64,000 nucleotides of DNA, from sequence record OR896157.1; one strand, given 5' to 3'. The translations under genes and the position numbers were made by a program. Shown piece after piece: positions 33,115 to 61,999 of this stretch. The notes under the pieces were generated by a model that saw nothing but the letters and a program-made list of their open reading frames with translations, did no database searches and was not told where the DNA came from. How positions within the stretch are numbered: position 1 is the first letter of the stretch; the number at the start of each line of letters is the position of its first letter. Origin of the DNA: a phage.

Positions 33115-33714
33115 CTATTCATAAATACCAGTCATTTCACACCAATGTTTTCGACAGAGTGAGACGTATTTGTCTTCACCACCTAATTCAATAGTATCAC
33201 CTTCTACGATAGCATTTCCTTCTTGGTCAACACGAGCAACCATTGTTGCTTTACGACCACAATGGCAAACACCCTTCAGTTCGCAGAGTTTATCTGCAGT
33301 TGCCAGAAGAGCGGCAGAGCCCTTAAATAGGTTACCACGGAAATCTGTACGAAGTCCATAGGCCATCACTGGAGTATTATAGAGGTCAACAATTTGACAT
33401 AATTGAAGAACGTGAGACTGGGTCAAGAATTGAGCTTCGTCAACAAACACACAGTGAATATCTTTTTGAGTCTGCGCCCATTTGAAAAACTCAAGAATGT
33501 CCATGTCTTCAGTGATGGTATTTGCTTCAGCATGTAGACCAACACGAGATACAACTTCATTTGCTGAATCTCGCGTGTCAATAGCTGGCTTAAGAATGAG
33601 CGTTCCCATTCCACGCTCTTTATAGTTATGAGCTGCTGTAAGCAGAGATGCTGATTTACCAGCATTCATTGAAGCATAGTTAAAATAAAGCTGAGCCATT
33701 ATTCGCCGTCCCAA
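33115..33714 (-). CDS. tk: thymidine kinase
   Basis: 199-aa ORF; AAMNAGKSASLL P-loop, zinc ribbon CHCG...C; strong match to remembered T4 Tk. Confidence 0.93.
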   Translation of the reverse strand: MGRRIMAQLYFNYASMNAGKSASLLTAAHNYKERGMGTLILKPAIDTRDSANEVVSRVGLHAEANTITEDMDILEFFKWAQTQKDIHCVFVDEAQFLTQSHVLQLCQIVDLYNTPVMAYGLRTDFRGNLFKGSAALLATADKLCELKGVCHCGRKATMVARVDQEGNAIVEGDTIELGGEDKYVSLCRKHWCEMTGIYE

Positions 33715-46587: not shown

Positions 46588-46788
46588 TTAGCTTAGATGC
46601 TTAACCGCATCGCAATCGTAAACAAAATAACTCGTTCCATATGGGTCAGAGATATTATTGAAATAATCATAAACTTTCTGTTCAGCTTCTCCATCAGAGT
46701 CAGCATCTACTGTGAACAGTTCTTCTTTAATTCTTCCGCCGTCTTCCATGTATTCTGCGATTTTATAACGTACTTGAACTAAACGCAT
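46588..46788 (-). CDS. hypothetical acidic protein
   Basis: 66-aa ORF. Confidence 0.4.
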   Translation of the reverse strand: MRLVQVRYKIAEYMEDGGRIKEELFTVDADSDGEAEQKVYDYFNNISDPYGTSYFVYDCDAVKHLS

Positions 46789-46803
46789 TGTGTTTTCCTC
46801 ATT

Positions 46804-46879
46804 TGGTGCCGGTTAACGGATTCGAACCGCTGACCCTCTCATTACAAATGAGCTGCTCTACCAACTGAGCTAAACCGGC
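46804..46879 (-). tRNA. tRNA-Thr (anticodon UGU)
   Basis: manual fold: acceptor GCCGGUU/AACCGGC, D GCUC..GAGC, anticodon loop UUUGUAA, T-loop GGUUCGAAUCC, CCA encoded. Confidence 0.8.
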
Positions 46880-46880
46880 T

Positions 46881-46965
46881 TGGTGCATCAAGAGGGATTC
46901 GAACCCTCAATCCTTTCGGCGGGGCATTTTAAGTGCCCTGTGTATACCAGTTCCACCATTGATGC
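46881..46965 (-). tRNA. tRNA-Leu (anticodon UAA), class II
   Basis: acceptor GCAUCAA/UUGAUGC, anticodon loop CUUAAAA, 13-nt variable arm, T-arm GAGGG-UUCGAAU-CCCUC. Confidence 0.8.
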
Positions 46966-46971
46966 GAAATT

Positions 46972-47056
46972 TGGAGCTAGGAGTGAGATTCGAACTCACG
47001 AAGGGATACCCGGCGGATTTGCAATCCGCTGCCTTTGGCCACTCAGCAACCCTAGC
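46972..47056 (-). tRNA. tRNA with class-II architecture and anticodon GCA (Cys-type)
   Basis: acceptor GCUAGGG/UCCUAGC, anticodon stem-loop GCGGA-UUGCAAA-UCCGC, 13-nt variable arm CGGGUAUCCCUUC; assignment tentative. Confidence 0.5.
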
Positions 47057-47060
47057 AAAT

Positions 47061-47138
47061 TGGTCGAGGTAGAGGGATTCGAACCCGTCGACCTGTGGAT
47101 TAGAAGTCCACTGCTCTATCCAGCTGAGCTATACCCCG
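47061..47138 (-). tRNA. tRNA-Arg (anticodon UCU)
   Basis: acceptor CGGGGUA/UACCUCG, D GCUC..GAGC, anticodon loop CUUCUAA; T-stem has only 3 clean pairs. Confidence 0.7.
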
Positions 47139-47142
47139 AGTG

Positions 47143-47268
47143 TGTTCAGACAGGACTCGAACCTGTAAGCATGTTCTTGCGGCGTTTTACCACCGTCGTC
47201 AGCATATGATTCAATATGCGAACTCAAAAGGTGTTGGACCCCTTGTCTACCAATTCCAGCACTGAACA
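47143..47268 (-). ncRNA. 126-nt tRNA-like stable RNA candidate (possibly rnaC/rnaD-type)
   Basis: 7-bp acceptor-like helix UGUUCAG/CUGAACA and canonical T-arm ACAGG-UUCGAGU-CCUGU enclose ~93 nt with D-loop-like AAUUGGUAGA but no canonical anticodon arm. Confidence 0.4.
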
Positions 47269-47278
47269 ACTTTATTTA

Positions 47279-47503
47279 TTACATATCAACTTGAGTAAAC
47301 CAGTTGATTTTGAAATACTCATCAAAATGAAGAGCAGGTTCAACTTGAGTATCTTCCTCAAGAAGAATTAAATTCTTTCTTACAATCGGGTCAAGATGAG
47401 TTGTGTTTAAGCAGCTATCATGCCAATATGTAAGAACTCGATTTGATTCAGTATCAACGAGATAACGAACATTCATATCAGGATGTCGGTACAGATTAAT
47501 CAT
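47279..47503 (-). CDS. hypothetical protein
   Basis: 74-aa ORF. Confidence 0.45.
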   Translation of the reverse strand: MINLYRHPDMNVRYLVDTESNRVLTYWHDSCLNTTHLDPIVRKNLILLEEDTQVEPALHFDEYFKINWFTQVDM

Positions 47504-47506
47504 AAT

Positions 47507-47956
47507 CTATTTCTCTTGAAGCATTTTGCGTAAACGATAGAGCTGATTACAAAATTCCTTTTCAGTCAAAACTGTTTCAGAGATTTTGTTCTTGCCCATA
47601 CTGTGGGTTAATGTTGCGTTACGAGTAGCAATCAATGCTTTTTGGAATCCAGTGTTTTGAGCAAGTGCGTCATAAGCTCCAGTTAAAAGATTCTGGTATG
47701 CTTCAGATGCTCGATGAATAGGAACACCCTTCCAATAAAGTGTTTGAGTAGGCCACCAACGCTTCTTCTTACCTTTGAACTTTGCTGCCTTTCCAACCAA
47801 TGTGCAAACATGAGCTTGCATTTCAGGGTTAGAAAATTTGAGGGATTGTAAAAATCCCTCCATTGAAGCACATTCTACACCATCATAAACGAAAGCATGT
47901 GGTGCAAAGTTACTTAAAGCACAAGAAGGATATGAACTTCCAGAGCCAATGTCCAT
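47507..47956 (-). CDS. NADAR/YbiA-like protein (DUF1768), candidate ADP-ribose glycohydrolase
   Basis: 149-aa ORF; SNFAPHAFVYDGVECASMEGFLQSLKF resembles remembered E. coli YbiA core (SNFA..DG..SEHYFQAQKF); downstream W...ALxAT pattern also shared. Confidence 0.5.
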   Translation of the reverse strand: MDIGSGSSYPSCALSNFAPHAFVYDGVECASMEGFLQSLKFSNPEMQAHVCTLVGKAAKFKGKKKRWWPTQTLYWKGVPIHRASEAYQNLLTGAYDALAQNTGFQKALIATRNATLTHSMGKNKISETVLTEKEFCNQLYRLRKMLQEK

Positions 47957-48187
47957 TTAATTACCGTGAGATATTCTAGAAGGTTTCTTACCAAAATAAT
48001 ATTCATATGAGCCATCTAAACGACCTGCTTTAGTGCGGCAATATGAATCCCATTTCTTATAATGCCGCCATTCATCATTGTATCTTGGATGACGGTCAGC
48101 GATTAAAATCTCTAATGGCCAACCAGGCGCAAAGGAACGGAGCCGTTCGACCTTTCTAATGTATCTTTTCTTTAAGATTTTCTTCAT
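47957..48187 (-). CDS. hypothetical basic protein
   Basis: 76-aa ORF. Confidence 0.45.
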   Translation of the reverse strand: MKKILKKRYIRKVERLRSFAPGWPLEILIADRHPRYNDEWRHYKKWDSYCRTKAGRLDGSYEYYFGKKPSRISHGN

Positions 48188-48405
48188 ATAGATTCCGACA
48201 TTACGTGAGTAGTTCTCTTTCTGATTGTAAATTGAGTTAATTCATCAACTTCACCACAACGCCAAGCGTCATCTTCAGTTTCAAAACCAAGAGCCTCGAA
48301 TAAGTTGCCTAAACGCCAACCTTCGTCAAACTCGGGGTCTCCTGAAAAATAGTAATAGTAATCGCCAGTTACTAAATCTTGAATTACAAAATCAAACTTT
48401 TCCAT
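48184..48405 (-). CDS. hypothetical acidic protein
   Basis: 73-aa ORF. Confidence 0.45.
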   Translation of the reverse strand: MEKFDFVIQDLVTGDYYYYFSGDPEFDEGWRLGNLFEALGFETEDDAWRCGEVDELTQFTIRKRTTHVMSESI

Positions 48406-48902
48406 CAGATACTTACCACAGTAATAGCTTCAGGAGCTTTAGGAATAACGATATCTTCTTCAATGTAGAAGAGCTTAAATGTTTCAGCTACACGCATAAA
48501 GTCAATATCATAACCGACTGGAGTTCCAATCAATTCTTGAATCTTATCCATCACTTTATACTGAACTTGATAGAAATCTTCAAGACGAGCATCGAATTCA
48601 TCTTCAGTATAATCACCTTCTGGGATTACAAAGCCAAGCACTTCTGAACAGAACTCTGGAGTGATTTCTTCATTTTCAACACAGTATTCAAAGAAAGCAT
48701 CACCGGAATAATCTTCATTACCCATTCCATTAGGGTCTGAATTATCAGATGCAAAACATTTAGCAACGGCACACCAACCTGAAACGTGTCTAGCATTTAC
48801 AGCATAAATCACATTCTCTTGATAATCATCGCCATCGTTTTCCCATGATACACATGATACTGCATAACCTTTAGGGATAGTTTGACCAAAGCGGAGTTCC
48901 AT
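48405..48902 (-). CDS. hypothetical acidic protein
   Basis: 165-aa ORF. Confidence 0.5.
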   Translation of the reverse strand: MELRFGQTIPKGYAVSCVSWENDGDDYQENVIYAVNARHVSGWCAVAKCFASDNSDPNGMGNEDYSGDAFFEYCVENEEITPEFCSEVLGFVIPEGDYTEDEFDARLEDFYQVQYKVMDKIQELIGTPVGYDIDFMRVAETFKLFYIEEDIVIPKAPEAITVVSI

Positions 48903-48912
48903 AATATTTCCT

Positions 48913-49287
48913 TCAATTAAATGGTGGAAGAGATTTCTTATATAAATCTATCATCATTCGCCATTTAGCAATTACTTTAGAATACGGAGATTTATGAGAG
49001 AATTGCGAAATGTCAGAATAATCAAGTTCAGGCAGTGGAGTTAAATGACCCATCAGCTCACGAGGAAATTGATGAAAACAATTCATCAAATCTTTGTAAA
49101 CATAATCAAGTAAGTCTTTAACATCAAAGAATTGGGTATTTAGTCCTTCTTTGGAATAACGATATTTCAAAAATTTCCAATGACCGGACTTAGAATCTTG
49201 AGTAAACGCGTAATCACTATGAAGCATGATATCGCGAACAAAATCTTCAGAAAAGAAGATGGAGTGAGTGCAACCATAATAAATCAT
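48913..49287 (-). CDS. hypothetical protein (124 aa)
   Basis: track ORF trimmed to ATG 49287 (GAGGA SD) so it no longer overlaps tRNA-Met. Confidence 0.5.
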   Translation of the reverse strand: MIYYGCTHSIFFSEDFVRDIMLHSDYAFTQDSKSGHWKFLKYRYSKEGLNTQFFDVKDLLDYVYKDLMNCFHQFPRELMGHLTPLPELDYSDISQFSHKSPYSKVIAKWRMMIDLYKKSLPPFN

Positions 49288-49305
49288 AATATTTTCCTCA
49301 GAATT

Positions 49306-49382
49306 TGGTGACCCCAGCAGGACTCGAACCTGCAACCTAGCGATTATGAGTCGCGTGCTCTAACCAATTGAGCTATAGGGCC
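49306..49382 (-). tRNA. tRNA-Met (anticodon CAU), elongator-type
   Basis: acceptor GGCCCUA/UGGGGUC, D GCUC..GAGC, anticodon loop CUCAUAA, T-arm GCAGG-UUCGAGU-CCUGC, CCA encoded. Confidence 0.8.
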
Positions 49383-49409
49383 AAAGTCCTCCTAAGAGGA
49401 CCGAGGGTA

Positions 49410-49634
49410 TTATTCAACCATGAAATCTGCTACTTCATCAAAGTCGTTATTGATGACAACAGTAAATGGCAGAGCTTCATCACTTGTTTTGATAGTCAGC
49501 TTAACAAAACCATCAACAGTTTCAACCAAACCAACGATTTTATCTGAACGCACTACAGCACGAGCTACGTCAACAATTTTACCAGTCATTGCAAATGTAG
49601 CGATTTGGTTAACTTCAACAACGATACGTTTCAT
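49410..49634 (-). CDS. hypothetical protein
   Basis: 74-aa ORF. Confidence 0.45.
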   Translation of the reverse strand: MKRIVVEVNQIATFAMTGKIVDVARAVVRSDKIVGLVETVDGFVKLTIKTSDEALPFTVVINNDFDEVADFMVE

Positions 49635-49695
49635 TCTTTTTCCTTAGTGGTTTTGATAAGGTAATTATATACTGAATTTTTAAAGCGTTTTCACT

Positions 49696-49729
49696 AAAAA
49701 GCCCCGTAACAGATTTCTCTGCTCGGGGC
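49696..49729 (-). terminator. intrinsic terminator at the distal end of the tRNA array
   Basis: minus-strand GCCCCG...CGGGGC stem followed by UUUUUAGUG. Confidence 0.55.
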
Positions 49730-49735
49730 GTCATT

Positions 49736-49810
49736 TGGTGGGAAGTGTTGGAATCGAACCAACCTCTCATGCTCTTCAGGCACGCGCTAATCCATCTCAG
49801 CTAACTTCCC
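49736..49810 (-). tRNA. tRNA-Phe (anticodon GAA)
   Basis: acceptor GGGAAGU/ACUUCCC, anticodon stem-loop CGUGC-CUGAAGA-GCAUG, T-arm GUUGG-UUCGAUU-CCAAC. Confidence 0.65.
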
Positions 49811-49813
49811 GAT

Positions 49814-49890
49814 TGGTCGGTGCGGCAGGATTTGAACCTGCGACCCCTTGGTCCCAAACCAAGTGCTCTACCAAACTGAGCTACACACCG
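49814..49890 (-). tRNA. tRNA-Pro (anticodon UGG)
   Basis: acceptor CGGUGUG/CGCACCG, D GCUC..GAGC, anticodon loop UUUGGGA, T-arm GCAGG-UUCAAAU-CCUGC. Confidence 0.85.
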
Positions 49891-49896
49891 TTAATT

Positions 49897-49971
49897 TGGA
49901 GCATCCAGAGAGAATCGAACTCTCATCTACTGGGTGGAAGCCAGTCATAATAGCCGCTATACGATGGATGC
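49897..49971 (-). tRNA. tRNA-Gly (anticodon UCC)
   Basis: acceptor GCAUCCA/UGGAUGC, anticodon stem-loop ACUGG-CUUCCAC-CCAGU, T-arm GAGAG-UUCGAUU-CUCUC. Confidence 0.8.
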
Positions 49972-49978
49972 AATTTGT

Positions 49979-50070
49979 ACGGAACGCCTGGATTCGAACC
50001 AGGTTAAATTGCGATTGACGTCACAATTTATCTTATGAAGGCCATGCCTCTACCATATCCGAACGTTCCG
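49979..50070 (-). tRNA. atypical tRNA-like gene / possible pseudo-tRNA with CAU-type anticodon loop (UUCAUAA) and a 9-bp hairpin insertion
   Basis: perfect 7-bp acceptor CGGAACG/CGUUCCG and T-arm CCUGG-UUCGAAU-CCAGG, but weak D and anticodon stems and a 26-nt perfect hairpin before the T-arm. Confidence 0.35.
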
Positions 50071-50121
50071 TCAAAAACGCTACTCGGCTTACGGCTTAGG
50101 CAATTCCTCGAACCGATAATT

Positions 50122-50195
50122 TGGCAGGCCCCGTAGGAATCGAACCCACGTCACTGAGGTTGGAGCTCAGGATAATACCACTATACGAGAGACCT
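50122..50195 (-). tRNA. tRNA-Trp (anticodon CCA)
   Basis: acceptor AGGUCUC/GGGGCCU (two G-U), anticodon stem-loop CUGAG-CUCCAAC-CUCAG, T-loop UUCGAUU. Confidence 0.7.
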
Positions 50196-50199
50196 AAAA

Positions 50200-50293
50200 T
50201 GGAGGAAGCGGTGGGATTCGAACCCACGGACCGTATCACTACGGCCTCCGCATTTCAAGTGCGGTGCAATTAACCAGACTCTGCCACGCTTCC
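50200..50293 (-). tRNA. tRNA-Ser (anticodon UGA), class II
   Basis: acceptor GGAAGCG/CGCUUCC, anticodon stem-loop CCGCA-CUUGAAA-UGCGG, long variable arm, T-arm GUGGG-UUCGAAU-CCCAC. Confidence 0.85.
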
Positions 50294-50297
50294 GAAT

Positions 50298-50373
50298 TGG
50301 GGTGACCGATGGGAGTTGAACCCATGACTACGAGAATCACAATCTCGAGTTCTACCAACTGAACTACGGCCAC
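50298..50373 (-). tRNA. tRNA-His (anticodon GUG)
   Basis: acceptor GUGGCCG/CGGUCAC, D GUUC..GAAC, anticodon stem-loop CGAGA-UUGUGAU-UCUCG. Confidence 0.85.
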
Positions 50374-50587
50374 ATCAATATTCACTCCAGCAATCATGAT
50401 GCCTTCACACGAAATTGAGAGAAGAGTGATCAGTTCAACCCTTGTAGACGCGTCAAGTAAATATTGATGTGACAGCTTATTTAAGAAGAGTGAGAGTCCC
50501 AGTCTTGTACGGAGTAACCATTTATGCATTGGCAGCTATCGCGCGGTTCGCACTTCCGATAAATGGACTTACCGTTACACTCTAATT

Positions 50588-50662
50588 TGGCTGGACTATC
50601 TGGATTCGAACCAGAGATACCGGAGTCAAAGGCCGGTGACTTAACCGCTTGTCTATAGTCCA
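50588..50662 (-). tRNA. tRNA-Gln (anticodon UUG)
   Basis: acceptor UGGACUA/UAGUCCA, anticodon loop CUUUGAC, T-arm UCUGG-UUCGAAU-CCAGA. Confidence 0.8.
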
Positions 50663-50668
50663 ATTGTT

Positions 50669-50745
50669 TGGAGGCGGGTGATGGACTCGAACCATCGCGT
50701 AACGGGATATGAACCCGTCATTCTACCAACTGAAGTTAACCCGCA
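50669..50745 (-). tRNA. tRNA-Met (anticodon CAU), initiator-like features
   Basis: anticodon stem ACGGG/CCCGU with three consecutive G-C pairs next to loop UUCAUAU; position 1:72 mismatched; T-arm GAUGG-UUCGAGU-CCAUC. Confidence 0.65.
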
Positions 50746-50898
50746 TCTATCCGGATTCTTGAAGTACTAACAAGTAGCTTGATGTAGAACACGCTAAAGA
50801 TATAATCTTACGAATATAGAGCTTATTCCGTGGGAACAAACAGCTTCGTCCTCGGCATTATCTTACAGGACTCTGACTTATCTTCAAGAACTGCCTCG

Positions 50899-51363
50899 TT
50901 ATTTTATGAACTTATTTATGAATCGTCTAGCTTGAGTATGACTGACTCCAAGTTCATTTGCAAATTTTACTAATGCACCACGTTTTGTGAAATCAATAGA
51001 ATTATATAAATCTATTCTTAAAGCAATTTCATCTGCAGTGAATTTATGAGCATGATTTTCTGATATTTTTATTTTTGTTTCATCAGAATGATTATGTCCA
51101 GTAAAACCAGTAGATACGATTCTTCCATTTGCGCCAGCGTCTTTAGCATTTTGCGCATTAGTTGCGCAATAAATGTTATCCAAAGAATATGGTCCAACAT
51201 CTCCTTTACGACACATACAATAATTATCTGAGGCTCTACCGCGCAAATGATATTTGCCAGTAGCTTTCCACCATGATAGCCATTCATCAAATGTCAGTTT
51301 AAATTCAATACCTCTTGATTTAGCATGCACTTTTTGCATGCGATACTTTTCATAATCTTTCAT
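50899..51363 (-). CDS. putative freestanding homing endonuclease-like protein (nuclease-like N-half, HTH-like C-half) inside the tRNA array
   Basis: 154-aa ORF; N-terminal GIEFKLTFDEW...NYCMCRKGDVGPYSLDNIYCATNAQNAKD, C-terminal helix-turn-helix-like; T4 carries segB at the analogous place. Confidence 0.4.
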   Translation of the reverse strand: MKDYEKYRMQKVHAKSRGIEFKLTFDEWLSWWKATGKYHLRGRASDNYCMCRKGDVGPYSLDNIYCATNAQNAKDAGANGRIVSTGFTGHNHSDETKIKISENHAHKFTADEIALRIDLYNSIDFTKRGALVKFANELGVSHTQARRFINKFIK

Positions 51364-51377
51364 ATTACTCTCATATT

Positions 51378-51454
51378 TGGCAGTGCTGACGGGTTTCGAA
51401 CCCGCGATCTCTCCCGTGACAGGGGAGTGTCTTGACCATCTCGACTACAGCACT
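51378..51454 (-). tRNA. tRNA-Asp (anticodon GUC)
   Basis: acceptor AGUGCUG/CAGCACU, anticodon stem-loop CUCCC-CUGUCAC-GGGAG, T-loop UUCGAAA. Confidence 0.85.
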
Positions 51455-51699
51455 ATAAATTTACTTTCGTGAGTATGGGATTACCCTCAAGCCTTCCGGA
51501 AAGCTGAATAGGCGTTATTGGCTCTCATATACCCGTGCACAGATATAATCTTCATTAACGCAATAACTTCATCAATATACTCCGAAAGTAAACTTTCGGC
51601 GCCGTATTTAATTTTGACTGTGTAGTTATCGTTGAGGGAACTCACAGACAGGGATTAAAGTGCCGACGACTTATCAGAACGTCTTCTGACTTCTACATT

Positions 51700-51785
51700 T
51701 GGCGGGCCGTGCAGGTATCGAACCTGCCTAGTCATTTCTGACACGGATTAACAGTCCGTCGCTTACCCTCTCAGCCAACGACCCA
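51700..51785 (-). tRNA. tRNA with anticodon GUU (Asn-type) and a 15-nt variable arm
   Basis: acceptor GGGUCGU/ACGGCCC, anticodon stem-loop ACGGA-CUGUUAA-UCCGU, extra hairpin GUCA-GAAA-UGAC, T-arm GCAGG-UUCGAUA-CCUGC. Confidence 0.55.
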
Positions 51786-51789
51786 AATT

Positions 51790-51864
51790 TGGTTCTCCGT
51801 AAGAGAATTGAACTCTTCTTTCCGACGTGAAAGGCCGGCGTCCTAACCGATAGACGAACGGAGA
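51790..51864 (-). tRNA. tRNA-Glu (anticodon UUC)
   Basis: acceptor UCUCCGU/ACGGAGA, anticodon stem-loop CCGGC-CUUUCAC-GUCGG, T-arm AAGAG-UUCAAUU-CUCUU. Confidence 0.85.
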
Positions 51865-51865
51865 T

Positions 51866-51943
51866 TGGTAGGACGTGAGGGAGTTGAACCCATCGACATT
51901 CCGATTAAAAGTCGGATGCTCTAACCAACTGAGCTAACGTCCT
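51866..51943 (-). tRNA. tRNA-Lys (anticodon UUU)
   Basis: acceptor AGGACGU/ACGUCCU, D GCUC..GAGC, anticodon stem-loop UCCGA-CUUUUAA-UCGGA; T-stem only 3 clean pairs. Confidence 0.75.
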
Positions 51944-51981
51944 GTAGATATTTATAATAACAAAAATATCTTTAAGCAAAT

Positions 51982-52057
51982 TGGTGGGAATAACTGGGCT
52001 CGAACCAGTGACCTAACGATTATCGGTCGTTTGCTCTACCAACTGAGCTATATTCCC
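51982..52057 (-). tRNA. tRNA-Ile (anticodon GAU)
   Basis: acceptor GGGAAUA/UAUUCCC, D GCUC..GAGC, anticodon stem-loop AACGA-CCGAUAA-UCGUU (C at position 33). Confidence 0.7.
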
Positions 52058-52063
52058 TGAATT

Positions 52064-52151
52064 TGGTGGGGAGTGATGGAGTCGAACCACCCGAGTCGCA
52101 ATGACAACAGATTTACAGTCTGCACCGCTACCTCTACGGAATTAACTCCCC
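52064..52151 (-). tRNA. tRNA-Tyr (anticodon GUA), class II
   Basis: acceptor GGGGAGU/ACUCCCC, anticodon stem-loop GCAGA-CUGUAAA-UCUGU, long variable arm; 5 nt between acceptor and D-stem. Confidence 0.75.
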
Positions 52152-52516: not shown

Positions 52517-52742
52517 AATGTTCTCTCGCAGTGTTTTGGTGAATCAACGATAATTCATCGAAGATTGACTTCATTGCATTTTTCACAAAAATTTTTTCAG
52601 AAGGCTCCATCGACGTATTGTTGATGATTCTCGCCATTCGTTCTTTAAGCTTCTTTTTCCGATTCCGGACCGTCTCCTTGGAAGCGGTCCTCATGTGAGC
52701 AAGATTAGTCATCATGTTCCGTCGATAGATTAATAATATCAA
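52491..52742 (-). CDS. hypothetical basic protein
   Basis: 83-aa ORF. Confidence 0.45.
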   Translation of the reverse strand: MILLIYRRNMMTNLAHMRTASKETVRNRKKKLKERMARIINNTSMEPSEKIFVKNAMKSIFDELSLIHQNTAREHYEHQQNLA

Positions 52743-52758
52743 GTAACTCTTTAAGCAT

Positions 52759-53187: not shown

Positions 53188-54198
<1,011 letters not shown>

Positions 54199-60052: not shown

Positions 60053-61999
60053 ATGGCAACTACTGAACCCTTTAACTATCAATTAAAAAGAACCGCGAAT
60101 GCGATTCCTGAAGTTTTCATCGGCGGCACGTTCCAAGAAATTAAAAAGAACTTCGTTGACTGGCTGCGCGGCCAAAATGAGTTTTTAGATTATGATTTCG
60201 AAGGTTCACGCATGAACGTACTGCTGGACCTCTTAGCATACAACACTCTTTACATTCAGCAATTCGGTAATAGCGCAGTGTATGAATCATTCATGCGTAC
60301 TGCCAACCTCAGAAGCTCAGTTGTTCAAGCAGCTCAAGATAATGGATATCTTCCATCTTCTCGTTCGGCAGCTAAAACACAAATCATGCTGGAATGTACT
60401 CATGCATTGAATGAAAACAGTTTAAGAATTCCTCGCGGAACAAGATTCCTTGCATACGCTCGAGACACAAGCGCTGACCCGTATCCATTCGTAACTACTG
60501 AAGACGTAATTGCGTTAAAAGACCAAAACAACCTGTATTTCCCTCGTGTTAAATTAGCACAAGGTCGTATTGTTCGCACTGAATTAAAATACAATAAGTT
60601 GAAACCAATTATCATCAGGGACGAAAATATCGACCGGTCAGAGGTTCGTTTGTTCGTTGATGGTGCAGAATGGACTAACTGGACTTACAAGTCAATGGTA
60701 CATGCTGGTTCTACATCAACAATTTATTACATGCGCGAAACTGTAGATGGTCACACCGAATTCTTCTTTGGAGAAGGTGAGCAATCTGTTTCCGTCGCTG
60801 GCGCAGCTTTAGAAGCTAACTACATCGGCGGGTTAAAACCTATTCAAGACCAAACTATCGTTATTGAATATATTCGTACTGATGGTGAACGAGCAAACGG
60901 TGCTACTGAATTTTCTTATGCTGATACACTCCCGTATATAAGTGTACAGAAAATCTACGAAAACCCAGATGATTCTCCAGATTACGTTGGTGCTGATGGT
61001 GGTGGTGACCCTGAAGATATTGAACGTATTCGCGAACTCGGAACTATTAAAAGAGAAGCTCAAGCTCGTTGCGTAACCGCAACTGACTATGATACTTTCG
61101 TTTCAGAGCGTTTCGGTTCAATAGTTCAAGCTGTACAGACATTTACTGACCAATATAAACCTGGCTATGCATTTATTGCAATTAAACCAAAATCTGGACT
61201 GTACTTAACTTCTGTTCAAAGAGAAGACATTCAGAACTATCTGAAGCCATTTAACTTGGCTACGATTACTCCATCTGTTATTTCTCCGAACTATTTGTTC
61301 TTGAAGCATAAAATTAAAGTTACTTATGCTTTAAACAAACTTCAAGAATCAGAGCAGTGGTTACATGGACAAATCATCGATAAAATTGATGAGTATTACA
61401 CCAATGAAGTTGAAATTTTCAATGCTCAATTTGCTAAGTCAAGAATGTTGACTTATGTTGACAGAGCAGACCATTCAATTATCGGTTCATCTGCCGAAAT
61501 TGAAATGATTCGTGAAGTTCAAAACTTCTTTGAAACTCCATCTTCAGGTATTAAATACTATAACCAGATTACTCCACGCAGTTTAAAATCAAGCGAATTC
61601 AAATTCATTAAAGGCTCTTCATCTTACATGGTACGTTTAGCTGGTACTGTCGGTGATGGCAAAAAAGGTAAAATTGTTCTTGGGCCATTTAAAGCCGGGG
61701 ATTTAGCAGCTACTCCAGCCGCTCCAATTTATACCGGTAGTGATTTTGAAAAGCTTCCAGTAACTGATGGAAGAAATACATATTTCGTTGTTGGTGAAGT
61801 AGATTATCCATCTGATTATATCTATTGGAATATCGCAGCTCTTAATATTAACTCAAGTTTATTTGACGTTCAATCAATTGAGCTTTATTCTTCACCAAAA
61901 GAAAACAACATTTTCACTAAAGATGGTTCATTGATTGTATTTGAGAATGATCTTCGTCCTCAATACACGACCATCACATTGGAGCCTATTGCACAATGA
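60053..61999 (+). CDS. 6: baseplate wedge protein gp6
   Basis: 648-aa ORF in gp6 position and size. Confidence 0.88.
   Translation: MATTEPFNYQLKRTANAIPEVFIGGTFQEIKKNFVDWLRGQNEFLDYDFEGSRMNVLLDLLAYNTLYIQQFGNSAVYESFMRTANLRSSVVQAAQDNGYLPSSRSAAKTQIMLECTHALNENSLRIPRGTRFLAYARDTSADPYPFVTTEDVIALKDQNNLYFPRVKLAQGRIVRTELKYNKLKPIIIRDENIDRSEVRLFVDGAEWTNWTYKSMVHAGSTSTIYYMRETVDGHTEFFFGEGEQSVSVAGAALEANYIGGLKPIQDQTIVIEYIRTDGERANGATEFSYADTLPYISVQKIYENPDDSPDYVGADGGGDPEDIERIRELGTIKREAQARCVTATDYDTFVSERFGSIVQAVQTFTDQYKPGYAFIAIKPKSGLYLTSVQREDIQNYLKPFNLATITPSVISPNYLFLKHKIKVTYALNKLQESEQWLHGQIIDKIDEYYTNEVEIFNAQFAKSRMLTYVDRADHSIIGSSAEIEMIREVQNFFETPSSGIKYYNQITPRSLKSSEFKFIKGSSSYMVRLAGTVGDGKKGKIVLGPFKAGDLAATPAAPIYTGSDFEKLPVTDGRNTYFVVGEVDYPSDYIYWNIAALNINSSLFDVQSIELYSSPKENNIFTKDGSLIVFENDLRPQYTTITLEPIAQ

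Follow-up and report, generated by a model that had tools for sequence, protein, structure and literature searches.

A homologue of T4 gene 30.3 (adfN) encoding a phage-type NADAR protein lies among tRNA genes in phage record OR896157.1

The adfN locus and its tRNA neighbourhood

We analyzed a 64,000-nucleotide (nt) stretch of phage DNA from sequence record OR896157.1 (the whole stretch is hereafter called the window) and focused on its homologue of phage T4 gene 30.3, or adfN, an ATG-started open reading frame (ORF) of 149 amino acids (aa) on the minus strand (Table 1). The original prediction had described this ORF as a NADAR/YbiA-like (DUF1768) protein located between two blocks of transfer RNA (tRNA) genes, and the ORF listing confirmed the 149-aa ORF together with the motifs that had been quoted for it, ALSNFAPHAFVYDGVECASMEGFLQSLKF, which lie within the protein sequence (MDIGSGSSYPSCALSNFAPHAFVYDGVECASMEGFLQSLKFSN...). 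Homologues were gathered by two database searches, with the window protein and T4 gp30.3 as the queries, and 131 of them were aligned (alignment A2). Because I3 is kept in at least 90% of these homologues and the ATG immediately abuts the TAA that ends the upstream 76-aa ORF, we consider the start of adfN sound. Enterobacter phages PG7, SonariX, and others match the region at 98.6-98.7% identity, and PG7, which shares 98.6% nucleotide identity with the window, is classified as Karamvirus, Tevenvirinae, Straboviridae; judged from its sequence, the window belongs to a T4-like phage of Karamvirus. AdfN has been reported as conserved in Tevenvirinae, the subfamily of this phage. The identical protein is already held in GenBank phage genomes, where it is labelled 'hypothetical protein', as adfN is in every close GenBank relative examined, and PF08010 has already been assigned to the protein in precomputed tables.

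Table 1 Positions of adfN, its functional parts, and other features in the window
Feature	Position	Strand	Basis or remark
adfN / gene 30.3 homologue, coding sequence of predicted phage NADAR ADP-ribosylglycohydrolase	47507..47956	-	stop codon 47507..47509
Active-site helix motif E33-G-F-L-Q-S-L-K40	47837..47860	-	alignment to T4 gp30.3
Codons of E33 and K40	47858..47860 (E33); 47837..47839 (K40)	-	catalytic Glu and Lys by homology
Codon of H118, the histidine marking phage NADARs	47603..47605	-	invariant in 131 homologues; aligns with T4 H123
C-terminal alpha-helix, residues 132-148	47513..47563	-	high-confidence model; aligned to T4 C-terminus
ORF run (cassette) containing adfN	47279..49335	-	tightly packed
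Downstream tRNA block: Thr-UGU, Leu-UAA, Cys-GCA, Arg-UCU	46804..47138	-	ARAGORN and Rfam
Upstream tRNA-Met(CAU)	49306..49382	-	ARAGORN and Rfam; divides the ORF cassette from the main tRNA block
Main tRNA block	49736..52151	-	ARAGORN and Rfam
Nearest plausible MotA-box-like patterns	51001-51025, 51954-51978, 52733-52757		upstream of or within the tRNA cluster
Macro-domain protein, 151 aa	33699..34154	-	just upstream of tk (33115..33714) in the direction of transcription
Acb1 anti-CBASS nuclease	53493..53951	-	PF23474, E=1.2e-58
154-aa ORF	50899..51363	-	phrog_16521, E=8e-58; between tRNA-Met (50669..50745) and tRNA-Asp (51378..51454)
140-aa ORF, TTG start	48913..49335	-	overlaps tRNA-Met (49306..49382) by 30 nt

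The gene sits in a tightly packed run of minus-strand ORFs between tRNA genes, at the location originally described. It is followed by one 74-aa ORF and then by tRNA-Arg(UCU) as the next RNA gene, and the tRNAs on both sides share its strand. This position differs from that in T4, where the gene is part of the 30.x cluster near DNA ligase (in the order 30.4, 30.3, 30.2, 30.1, ligase, and then alt). By tblastn, the protein is present in 1,510 phage records at 1,513 places, which is essentially once per genome. In Erwinia phage COW86c, which is 97.8% identical to the window across the adfN region, the ligase-proximal region retains a 30.2 homologue (49% identity), and no second 30.3 copy was found in the 24-kilobase (kb) ligase region. 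The tRNA-cluster copy is the only adfN copy in the lineage of the window.

To describe this placement more broadly, we took 80 IMG/VR loci (L007-L086) encoding relatives 60-100% identical to the window protein. A tRNA gene lies within 4 kb of adfN in 36 loci and within 1.5 kb in 29, tRNA genes flank it on both sides in 22, and they are always co-oriented with it. In 13 of the 80 loci the first feature downstream of adfN is tRNA-Arg(UCU), matching the order in the window, and in many loci, including most of these 13, the nearest upstream tRNA is tRNA-Met(CAU). In two loci (L043 and L075) no ORF other than adfN stands between tRNA-Met and tRNA-Arg, and the gaps measure about 100 and 30 nt. No tRNA occurs within 4 kb in the remaining 44 of the 80 loci. 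Placement inside tRNA arrays therefore recurs in many T4-like phages; since the tRNA-linked loci are mostly from related T4-like genomes, it may be one inherited arrangement in a known variable region. This recurrent position in tRNA arrays, rather than next to ligase, is the sole fresh point of our analysis and is mildly new.

We also searched the neighbourhood for a conserved partner that could be a candidate for the T4 'potentiating factor', and none of the nine neighbouring ORFs is conserved with adfN beyond close relatives. The upstream 76-aa ORF was considered as a T4 30.4 homologue and rejected, as it has no homology. Pfam and PHROGs scans detected no ADP-ribosyltransferase or DarT signatures among the neighbouring ORFs. 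With no adjacent toxin and no conserved neighbour, adfN is consistent with a stand-alone 'orphan antitoxin', and the analysis did not tie its function to that of the neighbouring tRNA genes or the distant macro-domain gene. When 46700..50000 was scanned for promoters and terminators, matches were fewer than in shuffled controls, and those found lie in coding sequence. MotA-box-like patterns are enriched in the window as a whole (19 observed vs 5 expected), and this window-wide scan placed none just upstream of adfN. The genome region of adfN in T4-like phages is generally early or middle in character.

Family membership, fold, and catalytic residues

A Pfam scan of the 149-aa protein returned a single match, PF08010 (Phage_30_3, 'bacteriophage protein GP30.3'), with an E-value of 1.4e-59 and a score of 200.3 bits (cut-off 36), and the match spans positions 2-137 of the 138-position profile. 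In PHROGs, the protein matches phrog_652 (E=8.9e-55), whose annotated function is unknown, and these two matches exclude a chance ORF. Pairwise alignment with T4 gp30.3 gave 43% identity end to end (E=2e-35). Both proteins are core-only, at about 150 aa. The window protein is nearer the family consensus than the T4 protein, as most metagenomic relatives share 50-70% identity with it and about 40% with T4. Longer relatives exist: some gp30.3-family members reach ~290 aa and carry the NADAR core as their C-terminal half, and in the phrog_652 profile (296 positions) the window protein aligns to positions 129-275. One such protein, from Tenacibaculum phage pT24 (BFVD A0A1B4XWL9, 292 aa), is covered over half its length, with 59% identity and a template modelling (TM) score of 0.93 on the query.

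According to De Souza and Aravind, as cited in PMC11543638 and PMC11125620, gp30.3 proteins constitute the NADAR superfamily's phage branch, and we examined this membership at the level of the single sequence and of the family. The single sequence gave no PF08719 (NADAR/DUF1768) match in Pfam at E<=1 and no phmmer match in the Protein Data Bank (PDB) at E<=10, and in NCBIfam it left only a trace of TIGR02464 (E=0.062, 13.6 bits, cut-off 73.7). Because these direct scans gave nothing useful, a naive single-sequence check would wrongly refute the NADAR assignment. At the family level, PF08719 is matched by 44 of the 131 relatives at E<=0.01 (best 4.8e-7), and among 177,635 PDB sequences the family profile matches E. 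coli YbiA best (E=0.015). Alignment of A2 to YbiA with hhalign gave a probability of 94% (E=1.5e-7) and pairs SNFAPHAFVYDGVECASMEGFLQSLKF with SNFAAWPIKVDGKTWPTSEHYFQAQKF. AlphaFold with A2 produced a model with a predicted local distance difference test score (pLDDT) of 95.7 and a predicted TM score of 0.90, consisting of six helices and two beta-hairpins; the prediction from the single sequence was unusable (pLDDT 39). Searched against the PDB with Foldseek, the A2-based model ranked YbiA first (E=5.7e-5), and the BFVD matches were gp30.3-like phage proteins first, followed by annotated viral NADAR proteins. The NADAR assignment of the original prediction is thus borne out by the profile, alignment, and fold comparisons of the family, and the PF08719 profile check, which fails on the single sequence, succeeds on 44 of its 131 relatives.

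The sequence comparisons also locate the catalytic residues. E33, K40, and H118 correspond to T4 E36, K43, and H123 in the pairwise alignment to gp30.3. S15, N16, E33, G34, Q37, and H118 are among the residues invariant in the 131 homologues, and K40 is conserved in at least 90% of them. The motif from E33 to K40 aligns with YbiA S-E-H-Y-F-Q-A-Q-K-F. The last ungapped hhalign block stops one residue short of H118, and extending it by one residue puts H118 opposite YbiA E125. The C-terminal helix is intact, and the alignment extends to the T4 C-terminus. One residue of the last strand has been reported to separate the NADAR branches: YbiA has Glu there, the DarT-associated BC4488 family has Asp, and phage gp30.3 has His (as given in PMC11543638 and PMC11125620). 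The 149-aa protein has the NADAR fold and belongs with the phage (His) enzymes, outside the YbiA (Glu) and DarG1 (Asp) types.

This placement limits the likeness to YbiA that had been predicted. The window protein shares with E. coli YbiA (PDB 2B3W, PF08719) the SNF...DG...sEhyfQaqKF motif and the superfamily, but its last-strand residue is His118, not the Glu125 of YbiA, so it falls outside the YbiA subfamily; the two proteins are only about 19% identical, and the single window sequence misses the profile to which YbiA belongs. YbiA is a chromosomal riboflavin-intermediate N-glycosidase of a LexA operon and gives no DarT1 protection in vivo (PMC11125620). With DarG1 (the BC4488 family, including Geobacter lovleyi NADAR 8BAT and E. 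coli C7 NADAR), the window protein shares the conserved catalytic Glu and Lys and would be expected to share the hydrolysis of guanine-N2-ADP-ribose. DarG1 differs in being about 219 aa long with an N-terminal extension, which the core-only, 149-aa window protein lacks, in having a catalytic Asp at the position of the His, and in being encoded in an operon with DarT1, whereas the window gene is phage-borne with no adjacent DarT toxin.

Predicted function and alternative substrates

The closest characterized relative is T4 gp30.3, which Johannesman et al. (2025) named AdfN, for anti-DarT factor NADAR (PMC11825919). Schuller et al. (2023) found that NADARs hydrolyse guanine-ADP-ribose (G-ADPr) and serve as the DarT1 antitoxin (PMC11543638), and T4 gp30.3 strips G-ADPr from DNA in vitro (Toxins 2024; PMC11125620). 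In T2 and T4, adfN is necessary and sufficient for resistance to DarTG1; T4 AdfN de-ADP-ribosylates DNA in vitro, has no effect on DarTG2, and is impaired by E36A, K43A, and C-terminal truncation, and the naturally frameshifted RB69 allele, which has lost the C-terminal helix, is DarTG1-sensitive (PMC11825919). The T4 NADAR is among the types later described as guanosine-specific and not cytidine-active (PMC12945103). The window protein shares with T4 AdfN the PF08010 family over its full length, the catalytic Glu, Lys, and His, the intact C-terminal helix, and the status of a stand-alone Tevenvirinae gene without a toxin partner. Two other phage-encoded orphan NADARs, AdfN-Bas32 and AdfN-Bas60, likewise show specificity for guanine adducts and neutralise DarT1 (PMC11825919), but they belong to other, independently acquired NADAR clades, are not of the PF08010 type, and are active without phage-specific factors.

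By homology to T4 AdfN, at 43% identity, we suggest, with a probability of roughly 75%, that the 149-aa protein is an AdfN-type guanine-ADP-ribose glycohydrolase that counters DarT1-type adducts on phage DNA; its chemistry, guanine specificity, and anti-DarTG1 role are all carried over from the T4 protein. The protein would be produced during infection, with early or middle timing suggested by the place of adfN among the co-oriented genes and tRNAs of the early region. As a core-only NADAR-fold N-glycosidase, it would cleave the bond joining ADP-ribose to guanine N2 in nucleic acid and so clear the ADP-ribose adducts placed on phage DNA by a host DarT1-type toxin of the DarTG1 abortive-infection system, which would allow phage replication to continue. 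It may in this way act as an 'orphan antitoxin' mimicking DarG1. Catalysis is predicted to involve E33 and K40 of the first core helix and H118 of the last strand. The distal ribose is held by E43 and K50 in PnNADAR (PMC11543638), a role that E33 and K40 would play here, with H118 probably taking the part of the third catalytic residue. The original prediction had linked NADAR domains to the removal of ADP-ribose from nucleic-acid bases and proposed the protein as a candidate anti-defence enzyme, in agreement with the experiments on the T4 homologue (PMC11825919, PMC11125620). That idea is correct and anticipates the literature; the finding itself is ordinary, as the family, fold, catalytic residues, and anti-defence role have been published and nothing here is conceptually new beyond the 2023-2025 NADAR/AdfN work. 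For a gene labelled 'hypothetical protein', the assignment would supply a specific function, the reversal of guanine ADP-ribosylation against DarTG1-type abortive infection.

Several points, besides the failure of the single sequence to match PF08719, weigh against this assignment. The 149-aa protein diverges from T4 AdfN by 57%, and its role is proposed from sequence. T4 gp30.3 fails to rescue DarT1 toxicity in uninfected cells (PMC11125620, PMC11825919), and the full activity of T4 AdfN is limited to T-even infection (PMC11825919); because of this requirement, activity in vivo may depend on a phage factor or on modified DNA. An anti-DarTG1 role would presuppose DarT1 systems in the hosts of this phage (Enterobacter, Klebsiella, Erwinia). 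Moreover, the T4 NADAR also clears G-ADPr from RNA in vitro, weakly (PMC11833690), so the substrates may extend beyond DNA, and DNA may not be the main one.

This last point leads to an alternative that we consider improbable, in which RNA is the main substrate and the enzyme removes ADP-ribose from guanosine of tRNA, messenger RNA (mRNA), or ribosomal RNA (rRNA) modified by host RNA-targeting ADP-ribosyltransferases, and the gene resides in a tRNA array because the enzyme is co-expressed with the phage's own tRNAs or protects them. Reversal of guanosine ADP-ribosylation on RNA has been observed in vitro for every NADAR family tested, that of T4 among them (PMC11833690, PMC12945103), and the co-oriented tRNAs within 1.5 kb in 29 of the 80 related loci, the two-sided flanking in 22, and the two loci with adfN alone between tRNA-Met and tRNA-Arg would all fit such a role. 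The T4 homologue, however, lies far from tRNAs, beside 30.2, ligase, and alt, and its DNA-directed anti-DarT1 role has been demonstrated genetically (PMC11825919); the T4 NADAR is also less active on RNA than the E. coli C7 NADAR (PMC11833690). The genomic argument is weakened in turn by the 44 loci without a tRNA within 4 kb and by the kinship of the tRNA-linked genomes, which may simply have inherited one arrangement. A related proposal, that the tRNA-array branch of the gp30.3 family does not merely duplicate T4 AdfN and has an RNA-tied role or needs no T-even helper, seems unlikely to us; examples of an RNA-tied role would be to strip ADP-ribose from guanosine in the tRNAs of phage or host, or to oppose a defence based on an RNA-targeting ADP-ribosyltransferase.

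Before 2023, a role on soluble ADP-ribose derivatives was proposed on contextual grounds for most phage NADARs (PMC9503650), and the window protein could accordingly be imagined to blunt immune signals or toxins derived from NAD+, such as cyclic ADP-ribose (cADPR) variants or ADP-ribose-1''-phosphate (ADPr-1''P). The window does contain a macro-domain gene and Acb1, and a NudE-like hydrolase is annotated in a relative, but the Macro and Nudix genes are about 8-14 kb from the NADAR gene rather than adjacent, no soluble substrate has been demonstrated for the gp30.3 family, and the proposal is older than the experiments on DNA de-ADP-ribosylation and DarTG1 counteraction by T4 gp30.3 (PMC11825919, PMC11125620), which leaves this explanation with very little probability. 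Finally, a YbiA-type N-glycosidase that acts on reactive riboflavin-pathway intermediates as metabolic housekeeping is suggested only by the weak match to TIGR02464 ('riboflavin biosynthesis intermediates N-glycosidase'), which is far below its cut-off and covers only the shared SNF...E motif, and with His118 in place of the defining Glu125 and a phage-specific family of a different demonstrated function, we regard it as extremely improbable.

Other genes and features in the window

The AdfN-type glycohydrolase predicted here would be one of several counter-defence functions, as the early region of the window is rich in them. The macro-domain gene that had been noted elsewhere in the window is present as a 151-aa ORF. 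Its Pfam Macro match is below the cut-off (E=0.0017), and phmmer against the PDB returned macrodomains, namely the ADP-ribose-1''-phosphate phosphatase Poa1p (6lfu, 2.5e-9), BT1257 (2fg1, 8e-8), and OARD1/TARG1 (3e-3). The protein belongs to phrog_335 ('phosphatase', E=7e-64) and is found in 2,810 phage records, usually beside the vs gene in T4-like phages. A regular-expression search for classical macro-domain motifs over all window ORFs found none, the expression being too strict since the macro gene is present. This candidate TARG1/DarG-like macro protein could reverse thymine-ADP-ribose (the DarT2 modification) or serve another ADP-ribose-reversing counter-defence. The window further encodes Acb1, which acts against the cyclic oligonucleotide-based antiphage signalling system (CBASS), and in COW86c (record 61688..61966) an Acb2-like anti-CBASS protein and the NudE-like hydrolase are annotated at sites equivalent to about 36-39 kb in the window. 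Enterobacter and Klebsiella phages of this kind are isolated against clinical strains, and knowledge of their counter-defence repertoire, here AdfN, the macro-domain protein, Acb1, and the Acb2-like gene of the close relative, helps predict host range.

Within the tRNA cluster, the 154-aa ORF has a weak N-terminal match to an HNH endonuclease phrog and no Pfam match, and in COW86c only about 160 nt, with no ORF, separate the corresponding tRNA-Met and tRNA-Asp; the ORF is probably a mobile, homing-endonuclease-like insertion. Two tRNA calls depend on the program used. At 49977..50071 (minus strand), ARAGORN alone calls an unusually long, 95-nt tRNA-Met(CAU) that is found neither by Rfam nor in the tRNAscan annotation of COW86c, and the ARAGORN call at the corresponding position in one relative (L007) is a 96-nt tRNA-Phe. 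At 52067..52151 (minus strand), Rfam finds a tRNA that ARAGORN missed and that is tRNA-Tyr in COW86c. In the 140-aa ORF, a Cmr2 helical domain was suggested by Pfam below its cut-off (E=0.007) and is probably noise. The PHROG match of this ORF begins at residue 15, and an internal ATG (M17, MIYYGC...) is likely to be its start in preference to the TTG.
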